Source: Patescibacteria group bacterium (GTDB lineage: Bacteria; Patescibacteriota; Minisyncoccia; Phycocordibacterales; Phycocordibacteraceae). From it: a DNA stretch of 60,061 bases. Shown piece after piece: positions 53,648-59,970 of this stretch. The translations under genes and the position numbers were made by a program. Each line of letters starts with the position of its first letter. The first letter of the stretch is position 1. The notes under the pieces were generated by a model, which saw only the letters and a list, made by a program, of their open reading frames with translations, ran no database searches and was not told the origin of the DNA. The DNA is taken from contig JBBTXR010000001.1 of NCBI GenBank assembly GCA_038062175.1, forward strand, positions 75,701 to 135,761. The letters run 5' to 3'.

Positions 53648-54613
53648 ATGAGCCTTGCGACCTCGATCGGCATCTTCTTGCTCTCACTCTCCGTGCTCTG
53701 GTTTTTTGCCGGGCTTCTTCTTGATTCGGTGGGAAGGCTTGCGTCGAGACTCTGCCGCTCCGGATTCGGTACTGCGTTCTTCGTGCTCGGCATCCTTACC
53801 TCTATCAGTGAGGTGGCGGTTGCGATTAATGCGGGCGTGACCGGGGTACCGGGTGTGTCCGCCGGGAATCTTGCTGGAGCTTCGTTTGTGATACTTCTCC
53901 TCATCGTGCCACTCCTTGCGGTTGCTGGCGGCGGCATGTCGATTAAGGGACTCGTCTCAAAGCAGACTCTTGCGTTTACTCTGCTCGTCATTTTGATCCC
54001 GGTACTACTTCTGGCGGACGGACGGGTGACAATGATCGAGGGCGGGTTTGCGATCCTTGCGTATCTTGCGCTTGCATACTCAATCCATAATCGGCCGGAG
54101 GGGCAGGTCTCAAATGTCTGTATTCCGGAGACAGGGGGACGCAGGGAACTCTATATCGATATCGCCAAGATTCTGGTTGGGGCTGCGGCAGTATTCATTG
54201 CCTCACATTTCCTTGTCCTGGAGAGTGTTGCAGTTGCAACCCACCTCAGCGTTCCTGCATCGCTTTTTGGACTTATCCTTCTTTCAATTGGCACCAATAT
54301 TCCTGAGATCGTAATTGCGATCCGTGCAGTACTTGCGAGGAACAAAGATATTGCGTTCGGTGACTACCTTGGTTCAGCGGCGGCAAATGTACCTATCTTT
54401 GGCGCACTCGCTCTTTTCACGGGCGGGTTTGTTGTTGAATCAAGTCAGTTCGTTGGTACGGCACTTCTCATGTTTGCAGGATTCGTACTCTTTTACTTCT
54501 TCGCGCGATCGCGCTCCGAGCTTACCAGAAGGGAGGGTATCGTGCTTCTCCTCTTCTATGCGGGTTTCATTCTCGTACAGGTGGTGAATCTGATCCGATT
54601 TGCAGCGGCCTAA
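53648..54613 (+). CDS. Sodium/calcium antiporter (CaCA, YrbG-like)
   Basis: Two alpha repeats, LTSISE..GNLAGAS and GTNIPE..GDYLGS; about 10 TM helices. Confidence 0.88.
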   Translation: MSLATSIGIFLLSLSVLWFFAGLLLDSVGRLASRLCRSGFGTAFFVLGILTSISEVAVAINAGVTGVPGVSAGNLAGASFVILLLIVPLLAVAGGGMSIKGLVSKQTLAFTLLVILIPVLLLADGRVTMIEGGFAILAYLALAYSIHNRPEGQVSNVCIPETGGRRELYIDIAKILVGAAAVFIASHFLVLESVAVATHLSVPASLFGLILLSIGTNIPEIVIAIRAVLARNKDIAFGDYLGSAAANVPIFGALALFTGGFVVESSQFVGTALLMFAGFVLFYFFARSRSELTRREGIVLLLFYAGFILVQVVNLIRFAAA

Positions 54614-56601
54614 CGGGTAGGTCTAAGCGGGAGGTATATATGTACGCTCGTGCCGCTTCCCTCTACACTCTCGATTGAGAGGCGACCCCCATGCTGCTCG
54701 ATAATGCGTTTTGATATGGGAAGTCCAAGTCCGTTGCCACTTGGAAGCATTGAGGTATCACTGCTTCGGTAGAAACGATCAAATATGCGAGGAAGATCTT
54801 CTGATGATATGCCTCGACCGGTATCGCTGATGCGTAGATGGACCTCGTCATTCATCTGAGTAAGTGAAAGGGAGATTCGCCGTTCACCCTCGTCTCTCAG
54901 ATACTTAACGGCATTACTAGCGATATTGAGGATCGCCTCACGAAGTCTCCGTGCGTCTCCCAAAACGGATAGGCGAGGTGCAATCGTTGTCTTGATTACT
55001 ACGTGCTTGCTCCCTGCGATCACGGTCAGTTCCTCAGCGATCTCGTCAACGAGTTCAGAGAGTGACACCATGTCTTGCGTACTGGGCTCTTCGCTCTCGA
55101 GTTTCGCAAGTGAAAGTAGGTCATAAATGAATCCCGAGAGTCGTTTCAGGGGGAGAGAAAGCGAACGTGCATCCTCACCAGTGAGCTTTGCCGGGGTCAG
55201 TTGATCAAGGCGCGTCTGTATGACGGTGAGTGGTGTTTGGAGGTTGTGTGATAGGTCAACGAGCATCCGTCGCTCATGTTCCTGTGCGCTACGAAGCTCT
55301 CGAGTTCGTTCCTCGACCGTGCGAGCAAGTTCATCAGCATGTTGTTTAGTTTGCTCGTAGAGGCGTGCTCGCGAGAATGCGGTCGCTGCCTGGGAGGCAA
55401 AGGTTTCAAGGAGCTGGATGTCACGACGCTCATAGGGGGTATTTGTACGTCGGTTTCCGACGACGATGATACCGATTTCCTCCTCATTGAGATGGATAGG
55501 AACAGTAAGGGTGCCGCAACCAAGAAAGGAGGTCGCTCCGTGCTGCTCCTCTGGAATGCGTGAACGTAGTGCAATACGAACGAATTCAGCATGAAGGTAC
55601 TCGGCAAGACACTGCTCCGCTTTGGTTTGAAGTTCATTGAATTCGAGATGGGTATAGAGGATGTTGCTCAACGTTTGCACTGCCTCTGCATAATCGTAGC
55701 TCTCCTTGAAGAAGAGTGGATCGGTAAGGCGTGAAAGTGTCTCCTTCAAGAGCGGAAATCCGACAATGCCGAGGATGAGGGTAATGGCTGCGCTAAGGTA
55801 GATAGCATCAACCGATGGCTCATGAAGCGTAAAAAGAGACACAAGGACTGCGTAGAATATGACAATAGCGATCAAGGAAGACAGGTACACGAGACTATTC
55901 TTAAGGACGAAGCGTATATCCAGGAAGTTGTGTCGGACAATCGTATATACCGTCATGCCGACCATGAGGATGGAGAAGAGTGGTCCGATCTTCGAGAGAT
56001 TTACGAATGCCGGAATGAAGAAGGGGAGGACTGCGCCCACTATGACCACGCAGGCGATAAAGGAGAACCAGCCAAGCACCACAAACGAGATCTGGTCACG
56101 GGCGGGTGACAAACTCCTTCGTTTCTTTAGGATGAGTTCCGTAATACCGCCACTAACACCAACGAGCGCCGTAATACTGAAGAGTAGATAGAGTGGTCCA
56201 AATTCAAGCGCGGCAAGTCCTGCAGGACCGAGTGTTGCCGAGACGAAGACAAGGTCAGTTGTCAGTGTAAAGAATATGATGAGTCCCGCTATCGCGTGAG
56301 TGAATGGTAGGAGTCGGGTAAGGATGGATTCCCGTGAGAATGGAAAGCGATGAGAGAATTCAAGAAACAGGGCGATAAAGCCAAAGGTGATGGCGTAGAA
56401 GATCTTGAGCCAGAGAAGGGATGCGGCATCAGTTGTGCTCGTATCGATACGAAAATTTGCATACGACCAAACGATGATGAGTGCAATCATCACCATGAAA
56501 ATACGAGAACTCGATGTCTGGGGGTGATGGCGCACCACCATCACACCGAGTATTGCGTTTATGAGAATGGTGATGGTGACGACCGCGAGGTCAAGAGTCA
56601 T
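54610..56601 (-). CDS. Sensor histidine kinase: N-terminal 7TM-type sensor, GAF-like domain, HisKA, HATPase
   Basis: About 9 TM helices; IQLLETFASQAA; SHNLQTPL; NAVKY, DTGRG, IFDRFYR, GNGLGL. Confidence 0.92.
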   Translation of the reverse strand: MTLDLAVVTITILINAILGVMVVRHHPQTSSSRIFMVMIALIIVWSYANFRIDTSTTDAASLLWLKIFYAITFGFIALFLEFSHRFPFSRESILTRLLPFTHAIAGLIIFFTLTTDLVFVSATLGPAGLAALEFGPLYLLFSITALVGVSGGITELILKKRRSLSPARDQISFVVLGWFSFIACVVIVGAVLPFFIPAFVNLSKIGPLFSILMVGMTVYTIVRHNFLDIRFVLKNSLVYLSSLIAIVIFYAVLVSLFTLHEPSVDAIYLSAAITLILGIVGFPLLKETLSRLTDPLFFKESYDYAEAVQTLSNILYTHLEFNELQTKAEQCLAEYLHAEFVRIALRSRIPEEQHGATSFLGCGTLTVPIHLNEEEIGIIVVGNRRTNTPYERRDIQLLETFASQAATAFSRARLYEQTKQHADELARTVEERTRELRSAQEHERRMLVDLSHNLQTPLTVIQTRLDQLTPAKLTGEDARSLSLPLKRLSGFIYDLLSLAKLESEEPSTQDMVSLSELVDEIAEELTVIAGSKHVVIKTTIAPRLSVLGDARRLREAILNIASNAVKYLRDEGERRISLSLTQMNDEVHLRISDTGRGISSEDLPRIFDRFYRSSDTSMLPSGNGLGLPISKRIIEQHGGRLSIESVEGSGTSVHIYLPLRPTR

Positions 56602-56617
56602 AGAGATATTGTAGAGG

Positions 56618-56648
56618 ATGGGCGGTACCCGAGGAGGATACCGCCCAT
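56618..56648 (-). terminator. Hairpin between the synthase pair and the kinase
   Basis: ATGGGCGGTA...TACCGCCCAT, 10-bp stem. Confidence 0.55.
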
Positions 56649-56652
56649 TACG

Positions 56653-57279
56653 CTAAAATCCAGCTCGTGTTCGATAATAGAGATACAGTAGAGGATCGCT
56701 CTTTTCGAGCATGTCTTCGAATTCGCTCAGAAAGATGACCGTTGGGACGATATACCCGCCCGCATACCACCGCCTGTTTCCGAGGGGACGTTGAATGCTC
56801 TGAAAGAGCCGATTCACCGACGTATGGAGGGCGGGGCTTACGAGCGCAAGAAGTCCAGTACACCCCTGCTCTCGTATGATGCACATCGATTCGATCACTG
56901 CTTCACATGCAATGTATTCAGTTGGTGTGCGGTCGTGGTGCGATCTTTTCGTCTTTCGTGAGGCCAATCGAGTTGTCTCGCAGAAGTGGACTATATCGAT
57001 TGGTAGAGCGATATCCGGACAGATACGTGAGAAGGGAAACGGCGGTTTTGTTAGAACACGGAACGTTCCTTCGATTGCATCGGTTGGTCCCCGCACAAGG
57101 CAGTAGATCGCCGTCGAGTTGTCATATCCATCGATGAGCTCTGCGGGAGCGGACTCGGTCGTAAGATAGCCTTCCTTTTTATACACCGACAAGGTGAGGG
57201 TGAGATGGGTCTGGAACGCCGCTGACCCGAATGGTGCTCGTTCGATTCGATAGTGAGAGGTATATTCGGTCTCATGCAT
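56653..57279 (-). CDS. FeeM/LuxI-like GNAT-fold N-acyl amino acid (or acyl-HSL) synthase
   Basis: VYKKEGY, DGYD, GTFRVL and FCETTRLA (E-x-x-RL) motifs of the NAS/AHL-synthase fold. Confidence 0.7.
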   Translation of the reverse strand: MHETEYTSHYRIERAPFGSAAFQTHLTLTLSVYKKEGYLTTESAPAELIDGYDNSTAIYCLVRGPTDAIEGTFRVLTKPPFPFSRICPDIALPIDIVHFCETTRLASRKTKRSHHDRTPTEYIACEAVIESMCIIREQGCTGLLALVSPALHTSVNRLFQSIQRPLGNRRWYAGGYIVPTVIFLSEFEDMLEKSDPLLYLYYRTRAGF

Positions 57280-58279
57280 ACTTTGTTCCTACCACTACTG
57301 AACGTGTTGGGACGATGGTAATCGTAAACCGGAGCGCATCAATAACTACATAGCCAGGAGCGGCCGGAAGCGTGGCCACACTCCTTAGTGCAGATCGCGA
57401 ATCATCTGCAAGAAGGCGCAGCAGCGCACGATCTGCGACTAATCCCGCTGCAAGCGGAGGATTGGTCGCAAGGATTGGGGCCTTACCCTCTTCTTGCAAT
57501 CGGCGAAGCACAAAGGCATTGCGCTCCATGCTGCCTGGGCCGGTGAAATACTGTGGTAGATCAGGAACGAAGACTGCCAGGACGGCCTGCATGACCCGAT
57601 CACGCTTGCTCTGCGAAGCGGTGCGATTGACGAAATGGTGCTCAAGCGCGAGCGCTTCCTTGCGCGAGAAGCCGAGCATGGTCTCAACTGCCATGCTTTC
57701 TGGCTCGAAGAGATGTAGGTAGCTTGCGAATCCAACGGTCAGTCCATTTACAATCGGAATACCTTGTGTACGTGCCGCCTGATGTAAGACAATGCAGGAG
57801 CCGACATTCCAGAATTCGATCTCGTCGATGATGAGATCGCATCCGTCGACAAAGGACTCCACTGTATGTTCGGTGAGTCCCTGGGGGTACACGACGATCG
57901 TTGTATCGTCACTGATTGCCCGAAGCATGTGAGCTGTGGCAAATGCCTTTGATTGACCAACGGTATCCCTGCGCGCTGCAAATTGCCGATTGATATTCGA
58001 AACTTCGAATACTTCGGGGTCTGCGATGCGGATCTCGCCAACGCCAAGGCGAAGAAAGATCTGGGCAATTGCAGCACCCATCCCGCCGCAGCCCGCGATT
58101 CCGACCACCTTGTCGAGTAGGGCATATTGCTCGGCCTCGGTGATCCACGGGATATTACGATCGGTTCGCTCAGCGTAGTACAACGGATTAGGGTCTTTGG
58201 GTTCGAGTCGGTAGATCTGCGCGGTATCCGGATGGATAGGCAGTTCGGTGAGACTCACAACCCCGGGGGAGGTATGCAC
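57272..58279 (-). CDS. ThiF/MoeB-family adenylyltransferase
   Basis: RNIPWITEAEQ, IAGCGGMG, DPEVFEVSNINRQ, GQSKA; GTG start with AAAGGAG RBS; overlaps the downstream gene. Confidence 0.9.
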   Translation of the reverse strand: MHTSPGVVSLTELPIHPDTAQIYRLEPKDPNPLYYAERTDRNIPWITEAEQYALLDKVVGIAGCGGMGAAIAQIFLRLGVGEIRIADPEVFEVSNINRQFAARRDTVGQSKAFATAHMLRAISDDTTIVVYPQGLTEHTVESFVDGCDLIIDEIEFWNVGSCIVLHQAARTQGIPIVNGLTVGFASYLHLFEPESMAVETMLGFSRKEALALEHHFVNRTASQSKRDRVMQAVLAVFVPDLPQYFTGPGSMERNAFVLRRLQEEGKAPILATNPPLAAGLVADRALLRLLADDSRSALRSVATLPAAPGYVVIDALRFTITIVPTRSVVVGTKYA

Positions 58280-58322
58280 TTGGAACTCCTTTCATTACAA
58301 GGAACTAGGGGAACTGCTTTCT

Positions 58323-58366
58323 AGAGTAGTAATTAAATATGAAATTTTCCTCGAGAAATTATGAAG
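58323..58366 (-). promoter_or_regulatory. Candidate OmpR-type direct-repeat site and -10 upstream of thiF
   Basis: TTCATA twice, 22 bp apart (58360-65 and 58338-43), then TACTCT; no -35. Confidence 0.4.
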
Positions 58367-58373
58367 AAAAGCT

Positions 58374-59042
58374 CTAGACACTCATCCGGTATCCACGACC
58401 TGAGACGGTCTGAATGAGACGATTACGTCCCCGATCACCGATCTTTCGACGAAGCGACATAACATGCGATTCAATAGTATTGGAAAAGATATCAACGTTC
58501 ATATCCCAGACATGCTCAAGGATCATTCCTCGTGAAAGCACGATACCGGCGTTCCGCATCATGTACTGCAGGAGCATGAACTCCTTGCGAGTGAGGTGAA
58601 GCTCCTTTGATCCTTTATGTACCGTACCGGCTTTTGAGTCGAGCACGATGTCCTCGACATGGAGCACGTCGCCCTCAAGTTCGGGCGGACGACGAAGGAG
58701 TGCGCGCACGCGTGCCATAAGTTCCTCAAGCGCAAAGGGCTTAGTGAGATAGTCATCGGCACCCGCATCCAGTAGATCTACCTTATCGAAGGTGCCGGTT
58801 CGGACCGAGACGATGAGGATGGGTACGTTCTTGCCAGCGTCGCGAATATCACGGCAGACCTGTGCACCCTCTTTCTTTGGAAGGAGGTTATCAAGAACGA
58901 TGAGGTCATAGTCGTTAATGCGTGCGAAGTAGGAACCCTGCTCACCATCAGTTACCACATCAACAGCAAAGTACTCCGCCTCAAACGATTCTTTTAGAAA
59001 TGTGGCAATTTTTTGCTCATCCTCGACAACTAAAATTCTCAT
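58374..59042 (-). CDS. OmpR/PhoB-family response regulator
   Basis: VVEDE, VLDNLLP, GADDYLTKPF, winged helix (LTRKEF, IQTVSGRGY). Confidence 0.95.
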   Translation of the reverse strand: MRILVVEDEQKIATFLKESFEAEYFAVDVVTDGEQGSYFARINDYDLIVLDNLLPKKEGAQVCRDIRDAGKNVPILIVSVRTGTFDKVDLLDAGADDYLTKPFALEELMARVRALLRRPPELEGDVLHVEDIVLDSKAGTVHKGSKELHLTRKEFMLLQYMMRNAGIVLSRGMILEHVWDMNVDIFSNTIESHVMSLRRKIGDRGRNRLIQTVSGRGYRMSV

Positions 59043-59168
59043 GGTGTACCGTTATTGTAGCAAGGGTGCTGGAATCGTACCCCTTGCACTTGGGTAAAAC
59101 AATGTTAGAACTTCAGCTTCTCACTATCTCATTTTCAGAATTATTTTATCTTCGCTATGATGCCCTGT

Positions 59169-59861
59169 ATGCAGGCAGTTATTCTCGCTTCCGGTCGCGG
59201 CACTCGTATGGGTGCGCTTACCGATATGGTACCCAAGCCCATGCTCCGCGTGGCAGGGAAGACGCTTATCGATCACAAACTCGATGCACTCCCTCCCGAG
59301 ATTGATGAGGTAATCATAGTCATTGGGTATCTTGGAGAGGTCATACGAGAGCATTATGGCGATTCTCATGCTGGCAGGCGTATCCGCTATGTGCAGCAGA
59401 TAGAAATTAACGGTACCGCGTCCGCTCTCTGGCTTGCGCGCCCACTTCTCTCGGGCAAGTTCCTCGTACTCATGGGAGATGACATCTATCCTCAAGAAGA
59501 TATCGAACGCTGTATAGCAACTGATGACTGGTCTGTACTTATCGAACGTACGGATACGATGGCGCAGGGAGGAAGTATGGTGGTTAGCGAGGAGGGGTTC
59601 GTGCTCGGTATTGAAGAGGGAGATCATCGTGGGAAGCCGGGCATCATGAATACGAATATGTTCGTGCTTGATGAGCGCGTATTTGCGCAGGAGCCGATTC
59701 CAAAGGCACTGGGGAGCGATGAGTACGGCCTCCCGCAGACGGTGGTTGAAGCATCGAAGCGTTTCGGGATCCCGCTTCACGCGATTGACGCAACTTCTTG
59801 GATTCAGATCACTACTCCTGAAGACCTTGAGCGGGCAGAGAAGCTACTCCGGACGCGTTGA
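59169..59861 (+). CDS. Sugar-phosphate nucleotidyltransferase (NTP_transferase family)
   Basis: AVILASGRGTRM, PKPML, LMGDD. Confidence 0.88.
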   Translation: MQAVILASGRGTRMGALTDMVPKPMLRVAGKTLIDHKLDALPPEIDEVIIVIGYLGEVIREHYGDSHAGRRIRYVQQIEINGTASALWLARPLLSGKFLVLMGDDIYPQEDIERCIATDDWSVLIERTDTMAQGGSMVVSEEGFVLGIEEGDHRGKPGIMNTNMFVLDERVFAQEPIPKALGSDEYGLPQTVVEASKRFGIPLHAIDATSWIQITTPEDLERAEKLLRTR

Positions 59862-59895: not shown

Positions 59896-59970
59896 GCCGG
59901 CGTAGTTCAAGAGTTAGAACGAGGGACTCATAAACCCTAGACGGTGGCGCGACTCCACCCGCCGGCACCA
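59896..59970 (+). tRNA. tRNA-Met(CAU), elongator-like, atypical loops
   Basis: GCCGGCG/CGCCGGC-A-CCA; CT CAT AA loop; T-loop CGCGACT. Confidence 0.82.

Follow-up and report, generated by a model that had tools for sequence, protein, structure and literature searches.

A Patescibacteria gene cassette in which a FeeM/LuxI-fold acyltransferase varies together with the sensor region of the adjacent histidine kinase: a candidate self-signal circuit

Do Patescibacteria make chemical signals of their own and, if so, by what chemistry? These bacteria (the candidate phyla radiation, CPR) account for a large share of bacterial diversity and are host-attached, with a minimal metabolism; to our knowledge, none of their cell-cell or host-sensing signals has been chemically defined. 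The question is raised by four adjacent genes in a stretch of 60,061 nucleotides, hereafter called the window (contig JBBTXR010000001.1, positions 75,701 to 135,761), which is the final 60 kb of contig C1 in a Patescibacteria genome of 703 kb, 16 contigs and 89.85% completeness. An initial annotation had seen four co-oriented genes there and had read them as a signal synthase with its cognate two-component receiver. Four open reading frames (ORFs) do lie at those positions, all on the minus strand and in the order response regulator (RR), ThiF, GNAT and histidine kinase (HK) (Table 1), and the domain calls hold as well: an OmpR regulator, a ThiF adenylating enzyme, a divergent FeeM/LuxI-fold acyltransferase and a 7TM-GAF histidine kinase. 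The genes are tightly packed, with gaps of 94 nt (RR-ThiF) and 51 nt (GNAT-HK) and an 8-nt overlap between ThiF and GNAT. We hold, with somewhat more confidence than doubt, that the cassette is a self-signal circuit whose product would be an ATP-cyclised N-acyl amino-acid derivative, a reading that draws on sequence comparison and on analogy with known enzyme pairs. All the computational checks able to refute the earlier interpretation came out in its favour.

The cassette recurs elsewhere. A synteny scan of 185,579 species genomes yielded about 526 related stretches, from which 80 loci were taken; 41 of these (L013-L053) carry a close ThiF orthologue and were scored with profiles built from our own alignments. 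A FeeM-related GNAT of about 200 aa was found directly 3' of ThiF, or fused to it (L026), in 36 of the 40 loci that could be assessed (L043 could not, being cut by a contig end). An HK followed the GNAT in 32 of 33 assessable loci, an RR stood 5' of ThiF in 27 of 32, and the cassette was complete in 26. The order RR-ThiF-GNAT-HK thus recurs in dozens of Patescibacteria loci, and natural ThiF-GNAT fusions occur. The loci without GNAT are L049, L030 (titled alphaproteobacterial), and L042 and L046 (both titled Rickettsiales). The last three (L030 9980-19054; L042 and L046 9974-15342) place GNAT-less close ThiF orthologues, of 39-49% identity, outside CPR-titled genomes. In L030 the ThiF gene is beside a 2650-aa ORF; in L042 its neighbours are a TonB-dependent receptor, a YfiR-like protein and a HAMP kinase, and L046 has a ThiF and an HK at positions matching those of L042.

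Evolutionary distances were compared between the proteins of 24 complete cassettes, the window's and those of 23 other loci. No trees were built: co-variation was estimated from pairwise local-alignment distances and permutation tests, after omission of L020 and L029 (HK shorter than 600 aa), of L026 (fused), and of loci that lacked one of the four genes or were cut by a contig end. GNAT distances followed those of the HK region preceding the GAF domain, with a Spearman coefficient of 0.73 that was reached in 0 of 1999 permutations, and the partial correlation between GNAT and the transmembrane (TM) region of HK, with ThiF, RR, GAF and kinase core removed, was again 0.73. Against the other parts of the cassette the GNAT gave 0.23 (ThiF), 0.00 (RR), 0.06 (GAF) and -0.02 (kinase core). 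RR and kinase core are partners and are expected to correlate; their coefficient was 0.46. Within the 19 cassettes that share GNAT type t2, described below, GNAT and the TM region still gave 0.42 (p 0.0012). When the HK was cut into slices, values of 0.63 for residues 1-100, 0.58 for residues 101-200 and 0.07 for residues 201-300 were obtained, and the ThiF C-terminus gave 0.18, even though it overlaps the GNAT gene. Joint change of the GNAT and the TM region of the kinase is the pattern that would be expected of a self-made signal and its receptor, and the pairing of a synthase with a cognate receiver is supported computationally by a GNAT co-variation specific to HK residues 1-200.

The same division of the cassette into constant and variable parts was seen at a single locus. 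In G020, a genome of the same genus carrying the cassette at the same place, the RR (66%), ThiF (about 52%), the kinase core (43-48%) and the flanking NTP-transferase (62%) can be aligned with those of the window, and the GNAT and the sensor TM region cannot. A similar tie exists in a different setting. Seven Bacillales loci (L079, L083, L085, L086, L087, L090 and L091) have a FeeM-like GNAT followed by a ThiF of 251-254 aa; the GNAT of L086, the sole Bacillales locus run through Pfam, matched PF21926 with an E-value of 9.2e-13. In 7 of 7, the divergent neighbour encodes a membrane HD-GYP (HD_5) protein of about 400 aa, and GNAT distances correlated with those of its TM part (0.90, n=7). A kinship between the TM regions of the HK and of the HD-GYP protein was rejected (hhalign probability 0.5%), and the two kinds of receptor are therefore treated as independent.

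The kinase belongs to a wider family with varied partners. Pfam matches comprised HisKA_7TM (2.4e-08), GAF_2 (7.7e-08), HisKA and HATPase_c (4.3e-30), and a hydropathy scan gave about nine segments between residues 5 and 285; the NCBIfam matches listed fell in the kinase core or the C-terminal half, and none covered the TM region. A profile of the sensor region had matches in 174 of 401 sampled genomes of the phylum, and full-length HK homologues were present in 3 of 40 same-genus genomes. In the 29 best loci (L104-L132), the gene just 5' of the sensor-family kinase usually encodes a small-molecule enzyme: a FeeM-like GNAT in seven (one with a ThiF between GNAT and HK), methyltransferases in four, a short ThiF followed by a methyltransferase in three, an untyped 209-aa ORF in two (L110 and L112, in L110 after an NNMT-like methyltransferase), a ThiF-like protein in one, and an Orn/Arg-type pyridoxal phosphate (PLP) decarboxylase, a class I/II aminotransferase and a nitroreductase-like protein in one each. 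The remainder had weak or no family matches, or other genes, upstream. The order short ThiF (237-263 aa as seen), class-I methyltransferase and 7TM HK (L111, L120 and L125) is, judging by domain content, a third arrangement tying ThiF to the 7TM kinase family. In L102 (G442:C40, 806-5360), from another genome of the genus, the locus is the same as window 54610-59042 and the orthologous RR and 7TM-GAF HK are kept. Where the window has ThiF-GNAT, G442 has three other genes as its cargo: one for a 223-aa protein of methyltransferase fold, one for an AdoMet decarboxylase (PF02675, 4.4e-21) and an untyped ORF of 240 aa.

What might the GNAT of the window do? A word-index search of 5.8 billion proteins found it alone, and an exhaustive phmmer scan added 7 representative relatives of 28-34% identity. 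FeeM was matched by 6 of these 8 family members (best 7.2e-10), the closest relative, in L018, scoring 30.5 bits. A profile of the GNAT and its 7 relatives matched the N-acyl-homoserine lactone (AHL) synthase TofI (1.2e-4), then RpaI, MesI and FeeM. The AlphaFold2 (AF2) model (pLDDT 87.7) gave, in Foldseek, TofI, LasI, MesI, BjaI and RpaI at ranks 1-10 and FeeM (PDB 2G0B) at rank 12 (E 1.7e-7; identity about 14%). Profile and model thus agree with the earlier placement of this protein, and its predicted membership of the FeeM/LuxI fold branch of the GNAT superfamily (PF21926, PF00765, PF13444) is supported. Seven residues (D50, D53, T72, R74, E101, T103 and R104) are invariant in the 8 sequences, and in the family profile alignment the conserved residues fall on the DxYD, R and ExSR positions of TofI; we take the functional roles of the DxxD, R and ExSR positions to be those of the LuxI literature. 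Three sequence types were distinguished, a1 (window and L018), t1 and t2 (the majority of cassettes), linked only at the profile level (a1-t1 98.3%, t1-t2 97.9%, a1-t2 35%), and by this comparison they are therefore assigned to one very divergent family. Elsewhere in the genome there is one further GNAT, sub-threshold. The structural neighbours of the window GNAT are the same FeeM/BjaI set as those of TyzA, for which the available text of Grigg et al. (PMC10404671) names FeeM and BjaI as the nearest structures.

ThiF is better populated with relatives: 201 homologues of about 50% identity were found, and those with a named source come mostly from Patescibacteria or Parcubacteria. Its best NCBIfam match was PRK08223 (2.6e-38, under the cut-off of that family), and the Rv1355c family (1.8e-19) did no better than plain ThiF (3.9e-23). 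Residues G63, G65, G66, G68, D87, N97, R98, Q99, K111 and D152, which belong to the nucleotide-binding and adenylation columns, are identical across 25 sequences. The adenylation motif would therefore be intact, including the Asp that is essential in TrzS, if the equivalence to TrzS D217 is correctly read from the ThiF motif. The AF2 model (pLDDT 89.3) had AclA (9egb) as its top fold match, then ThiF and MoeB. Natural fusions of 490-545 aa join ThiF to Acetyltransf_5, FeeM, Autoind_synth or a second C-terminal type (examples are P0022, P0034, P0079, P0091 and L026); BLASTP of the window GNAT against two of the fused proteins, P0034 and P0030, gave no match. A predicted complex of ThiF and GNAT scored 0.00 in a run that had no controls, and was counted neither way. 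A weak-evidence search for longer ThiF relatives gave one protein only, P0129, a ThiF-nitroreductase of OxzB/TrzS architecture with 35% identity to the window ThiF over 50% of the query.

Seven short loci (L003, L004 and L006-L010, from the same-genus genomes G004, G003, G002, G024, G013, G007 and G023) bear a distant ThiF paralogue of 311-394 aa that adjoins a match of about 355 aa to the oxidase half of P0129. By sequence, ThiF paralogue and oxidase match form an OxzB/TyzBC-like pair, split over two genes, within CPR genomes. In the short loci, a GNAT was not detected.

The known enzyme pairs suggest what the two enzymes may produce. In OxzAB, TyzABC and TrzAS, an aromatic amino acid is N-acylated at the expense of acyl-CoA, the product is cyclised by ThiF with ATP, and a flavin oxidase then desaturates it, according to the text available of two reports (bioRxiv 10.1101/2020.06.11.147165; PMC10404671). 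For TrzS, cyclisation is described as coming first, and a saturated cyclic intermediate builds up once the oxidase is disabled (PMC12856293, available text). In the window the oxidase is missing, as the initial annotation had observed: no nitroreductase occurs in the cassette (Pfam), and the genome, at 89.85% completeness, yielded none. The oxidase half of P0129 had no match within 10 kb on either side of the related cassettes; its 7 matches all lie in other same-genus loci. A check on fatty-acid supply, for which the annotation had called, found no acyl carrier protein (ACP; PP-binding) or fatty-acid synthase (ketoacyl-synt) gene in the genome as assembled, and AMP-binding acyl-CoA ligase, CoaE, PlsC-type acyltransferase, S-adenosylmethionine (SAM) synthetase and PTA were not found in it either. 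Because nitroreductase, ACP, fatty-acid synthase, acyl-CoA ligase, CoaE and SAM synthetase were all not found, a classical AHL or an OxzB-type unsaturated oxazolone is an unlikely product on this gene content.

We therefore propose the following scheme for the self-signal circuit. The FeeM/LuxI-fold enzyme would N-acylate an amino acid or a related amine, and ThiF would adenylate the carboxylate with ATP and allow ring closure, by analogy to TyzB, OxzB and TrzS. As there is no flavin desaturase, the product would be a saturated 5(4H)-oxazolone or some other N-acyl amino-acid derivative, cyclic or activated, whose formation is driven by ATP, and neither an OxzB-type unsaturated oxazolone nor a SAM-derived AHL. 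Being lipophilic, it might be sensed in the membrane by HK residues 1 to about 200, and the kinase would relay the signal via GAF, HisKA and HATPase to the OmpR regulator. The acyl donor could, speculatively, be derived from the host, or activation could be carried out by ThiF itself.

Several observations weigh against this scheme. As regards distribution, one locus (L027) has no HK after its GNAT, five (L016, L019, L027, L037 and L048) have no RR 5' of ThiF, and the cassette is rare: a ThiF orthologue was found in 1 of 24 same-genus genomes, and none of full length in 400 other sampled genomes of the phylum. As regards the statistics, Mantel-type permutation tests on related sequences inflate significance. 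Moreover, GNAT and the 5' end of HK are direct neighbours on the DNA, so that block recombination alone could yield their co-variation with no ligand link needed, and a sensor for the substrate of the enzyme would account for the co-variation as well as one for its product. As regards the chemistry, the sole Pfam match of the window GNAT, FeeM (PF21926; E 0.0021), stands at 18.3 bits under a cut-off of 27 bits. Type t2, the commonest, lacks DxxD and carries a Q at the E position of ExSR, and the chemistry may therefore differ from cassette to cassette. Lastly, a FeeM-type reaction is, on the genes found, left with no obvious source of acyl substrate in this cell, since no ACP, acyl-CoA ligase or CoA synthesis genes were found.

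Of the alternatives to this scheme, the strongest, which we consider unlikely, is a substrate-sensing unit for modification or detoxification: the kinase would sense an amine, amino acid or fatty acid from outside the cell, perhaps from the host, and induce enzymes to conjugate or modify it, and GNAT and sensor would vary together because both recognise the same compound. Co-variation fits this as well as it fits product sensing, and the cell's own acyl donors were not found. The idea also gains from the company that related 7TM kinases keep, preceded as they are by methyltransferases, a PLP decarboxylase, an aminotransferase and a nitroreductase-like protein, and from the methyltransferase-fold protein and AdoMet decarboxylase that are the same-locus cargo in G442. 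It is less easily reconciled with the known cases in which a FeeM/LuxI-fold enzyme and an ATP-using ThiF (OxzAB, TyzABC, TrzAS) form biosynthetic pairs, nor did the synteny survey find any transporter or efflux gene in the conserved cassette. In addition, the aminotransferase and LuxI-like cargos beside the kinases match known types of autoinducer synthase, to judge from the available text of PMC7567580.

A decidedly less probable alternative keeps the enzymes and removes the ligand link: the two-component system would sense a stress unrelated to the product and switch on an N-acyl amino-acid lipid or antimicrobial, the co-variation reflecting recombination of a block. N-acyl amino acids do serve as antibiotics and membrane constituents besides signals (discussion section of PMC10404671), and a recombined block would be consistent with the contiguity of GNAT and the HK 5' end and with a hairpin between them that is common to the window and L018. 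The ThiF C-terminus, which overlaps GNAT, nonetheless does not co-vary with it (0.18), and linkage alone therefore does not predict the pattern; the co-varying block also stops sharply near HK residue 200, and the Bacillales tie the same enzyme pair to an unrelated membrane receptor.

It is very improbable that the GNAT is a canonical LuxI-type synthase making an AHL from SAM and acyl-ACP or acyl-CoA for a LuxN-like kinase, with ThiF incidental. The ranking of AHL synthases as the best fold matches, the alignment of the DxYD, R and ExSR positions to TofI and the presence of Autoind_synth in some fused relatives all speak for it, as do 18 CPR LuxI homologues reported beside sensory kinases (available text of PMC7567580). 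Nevertheless, Autoind_synth (PF00765) had no match in the window GNAT and matched 1 of the 8 family members, with an E-value of 0.017. SAM synthetase, ACP and CoaE were not found in the genome, and ThiF is conserved beside GNAT, overlaps it and is at times fused to it, and is therefore not incidental.

We give equally little credit to a ThiF acting on a protein or peptide (E1-like, sulfur-carrier or ribosomal-peptide (RiPP) type), with the GNAT acylating that macromolecule, or to a Cap2-like defence module: although proteins, peptides or tRNA are the substrates of most characterised ThiF enzymes (available text of the ThiF review PMC12596934) and PADLOC E1-E2 models match the adenylation core (4.6e-14), the window ThiF lacks a CxxC motif and any conserved loop Cys, the PADLOC matches span residues 49-179 or so with none to the E2 part, the gaps and overlap in the window leave no space for a conserved precursor gene, and the cassette is without cyclase or effector genes. 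Two specific candidates of this kind were tried and rejected. A ThiF/MoeB sulfur-carrier activator was set aside for want of a CxxC motif, no search for a ThiS/MoaD partner having been made; the three Cys of ThiF are at 64, 147 and 162, and 25 sequences have no conserved Cys column beyond the GCGG motif. CBASS Cap2/E1-E2 defence was set aside as PADLOC covers only the E1 core, about 49-179, of models that are 426-778 positions long. The other cassette proteins gave no defence matches in PADLOC except a generic ATPase match.

The self-signal reading can be widened to the whole kinase family, and here we are tentative, with clearly more doubt than belief. The first 200 or so residues of the 7TM kinases would co-diversify with an interchangeable upstream cargo of small-molecule enzymes, giving pherotype-like private chemical languages among host-dependent, ultra-small bacteria. 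Typed by sequence, the cargos seen so far are FeeM-like GNATs (some accompanied by ThiF), methyltransferases, PLP enzymes and AdoMet decarboxylase. Where the cargo is ThiF-GNAT, formation of a cyclic N-acyl amino-acid signal with a host-scavenged acyl chain would be driven by ATP, and not by SAM, CoA or ACP, and this signal could report host contact. By analogy, it would be a saturated azlactone, or else a lactone or lactam whose ring is closed via the acyl-adenylate.

How might such a cassette be expressed? The hairpin said to separate the enzyme pair from the kinase is present as a perfect stem, and none of 200 shuffled sequences folded as well. It was not listed in a scan for the terminator consensus. 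After the GNAT of related loci, hairpins with z of -2.8 or lower occurred in 16 of the 25 that were folded (mononucleotide shuffles, 30 each), several of them then followed by T-runs, and the stem in L018 is near-identical to that of the window. We propose, from sequence, that it is an attenuator or terminator, or a processing site, parting RR-ThiF-GNAT from HK. The genes RR, ThiF and GNAT are probably one transcription unit, closed by the hairpin, with HK read separately, and such a grouping might permit positive feedback. The overlap of ThiF and GNAT, with a ribosome-binding site, is likewise as described in the annotation: the 8 shared nucleotides are ATGCATGA, a weak AGGA-type site precedes the GNAT start, and AAAGGAG sits 8 nt 5' of the ThiF GTG.

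The -10 boxes that had been claimed in front of HK and RR fared less evenly. The same octamer, CTACAATA, is found at both places and is enriched in the window, with 5 copies (starts 1083, 12838, 18902, 56607 and 59053) versus 0.82 expected, whereas a scan for the two-hexamer promoter consensus was blank there and found no minus-strand promoter in any intergenic gap of the cassette. The octamer may be this organism's extended -10 element, placed very near start codons so as to give leaderless or short-leader mRNAs.

The RR that would receive the signal has every one of its best NCBIfam matches under the equivalog cut-off. On its side the cassette is flanked by a divergent NTP-transferase gene, the only flank kept in G020 and G442, and just past that gene, close to the contig end, is a tRNA gene, the sole match of an Rfam scan. 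At the other end, a gene of the Na/Ca-exchanger family converges on HK. A sequencing-run search listed six DNA entries, all groundwater metagenomes from 2 studies and three of them perhaps the source, and no RNA run among the matches listed.

Table 1. Position of the cassette genes, their putative control elements and the flanking genes in the window
Feature	Position	Strand	Evidence
OmpR/PhoB-type RR, 222 aa, first gene of the cassette	58374..59042	-	Pfam Response_reg 2e-25, Trans_reg_C 1.8e-25
ThiF-family ATP-dependent carboxylate-adenylating enzyme, 335 aa, GTG start, proposed cyclase/activator	57272..58279	-	Pfam PF00899 3.6e-31
Divergent FeeM/LuxI-fold N-acyltransferase, 208 aa, proposed N-acyl amino acid synthase	56653..57279	-	Pfam, profile, AF2/Foldseek
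Sensor histidine kinase, 663 aa: about 9 TM, GAF, HisKA, HATPase_c	54610..56601	-	Pfam and hydropathy
HK residues 1-200, about the first six TM segments, proposed ligand-specificity region	56002..56601	-	Co-varies with GNAT
Perfect 13-bp hairpin, 5-nt loop, 5 nt after the GNAT stop, no U-tract	56618..56648	-	dG -27.4 kcal/mol, z -4.47
CTACAATA, -10-like octamer 6 nt 5' of the HK ATG, possible leaderless HK transcript	56607..56614	-	Inferred
CTACAATA, -10-like octamer 11 nt 5' of the RR start, possible short-leader promoter	59053..59060	-	Inferred
Na/Ca-exchanger-family gene	53648..54613	+	Pfam
NTP-transferase gene	59157..59861	+	Pfam
tRNA gene	59896..59967	+	Rfam, 57.4 bits

That CPR bacteria might signal in this manner has been suggested before. 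Bernard et al. (2020, mSystems, PMC7567580) identified 36 LuxI homologues in CPR by hidden Markov models, 18 of them beside a putative sensory kinase, and proposed these as complete quorum-sensing systems, according to the available text; the product was read as AHL, and ThiF has 0 occurrences in the main text. Their LuxI homologue/kinase loci are probably of the same class as the window cassette. The statement of the annotation that no such CPR system is characterised stands as regards characterisation; the adjacency of LuxI homologue and kinase, however, is already published as candidate quorum sensing (PMC7567580). That paper thus already holds the signalling idea, and what is added here is the coupling to ThiF, the fusions, and the missing desaturase and donors. 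Added further are the sharply bounded co-variation of GNAT and sensor, the swap of cargo and the HD-GYP counterpart in Bacillales. A literature search on Patescibacteria together with N-acyl amino acids gave nothing relevant.

The comparative tie between the enzyme and the TM region of the sensor turns the quorum-sensing suggestion of 2020 into a directly testable ligand-receptor hypothesis, and the cassette is compact and expressible, since beyond a single kinase and a single regulator it needs only the two enzymes or, in their stead, one of the natural fusion proteins. It also points to a desaturase-free ThiF/FeeM chemistry in a genome with no visible supply of ACP, CoA or SAM; we know of no description of such chemistry. 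The hypervariable GNAT-sensor block and the swap of cargo at one locus suggest a route by which the specificity of signals diversifies.

Among the closest known systems are OxzAB of Pseudoalteromonas rubra, TyzABC, and TrzAS of Mycobacterium tuberculosis. As in these, a FeeM/LuxI-fold N-acyltransferase gene adjoins, and overlaps, that of a ThiF whose adenylation motifs are intact; TyzB, at about 318 aa, is also a ThiF that stands alone, and the only long relative found for the window ThiF has the ThiF-nitroreductase architecture of OxzB and TrzS. Unlike these, the window has no nitroreductase/FDO domain in the cassette, within 10 kb of related cassettes or in the genome, its enzymes are embedded in a two-component system, and no source is visible for acyl-CoA, the donor of OxzA, TyzA and TrzA. 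A product other than those of the three systems is therefore expected. OxzB is the sole small-molecule ThiF enzyme named in the available text of the ThiF review (PMC12596934). The best solved relative of the window ThiF is AclA of Tenacibaculum discolor (PDB 9EGB/9EGC; sequence 3e-11, fold 3.4e-14), a stand-alone ThiF of about 265 aa, crystallised 'with substrate', with 18% identity; a literature search on AclA brought up no relevant paper. FeeM, from soil environmental DNA (PDB 2G0B), has the same fold as the window GNAT and is its only Pfam family match; FeeM depends on ACP (PMC10404671, available text), which was not found in the window genome.

With regard to sensing, the cassette has a small-molecule synthase gene beside a polytopic histidine kinase, which would detect a lipophilic product within the membrane, as do LuxM/LuxN, CqsA/CqsS and LqsA/LqsS, which are pairs of autoinducer synthase and membrane kinase. 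It differs from them in its ThiF and FeeM-like chemistry, in a kinase of about 9 TM segments plus GAF, and in the position of the enzymes between RR and HK. In the agr and com specificity groups of Firmicutes, the sensor half of the kinase varies in step with a hypervariable signal gene. The cassette resembles these in its hypervariable block (GNAT and HK residues 1-200) within a conserved RR, ThiF and kinase core, and in that genomes of one genus bear different GNAT types at the same locus. In contrast to agr and com, the variable element of the cassette is an enzyme and not a peptide precursor.

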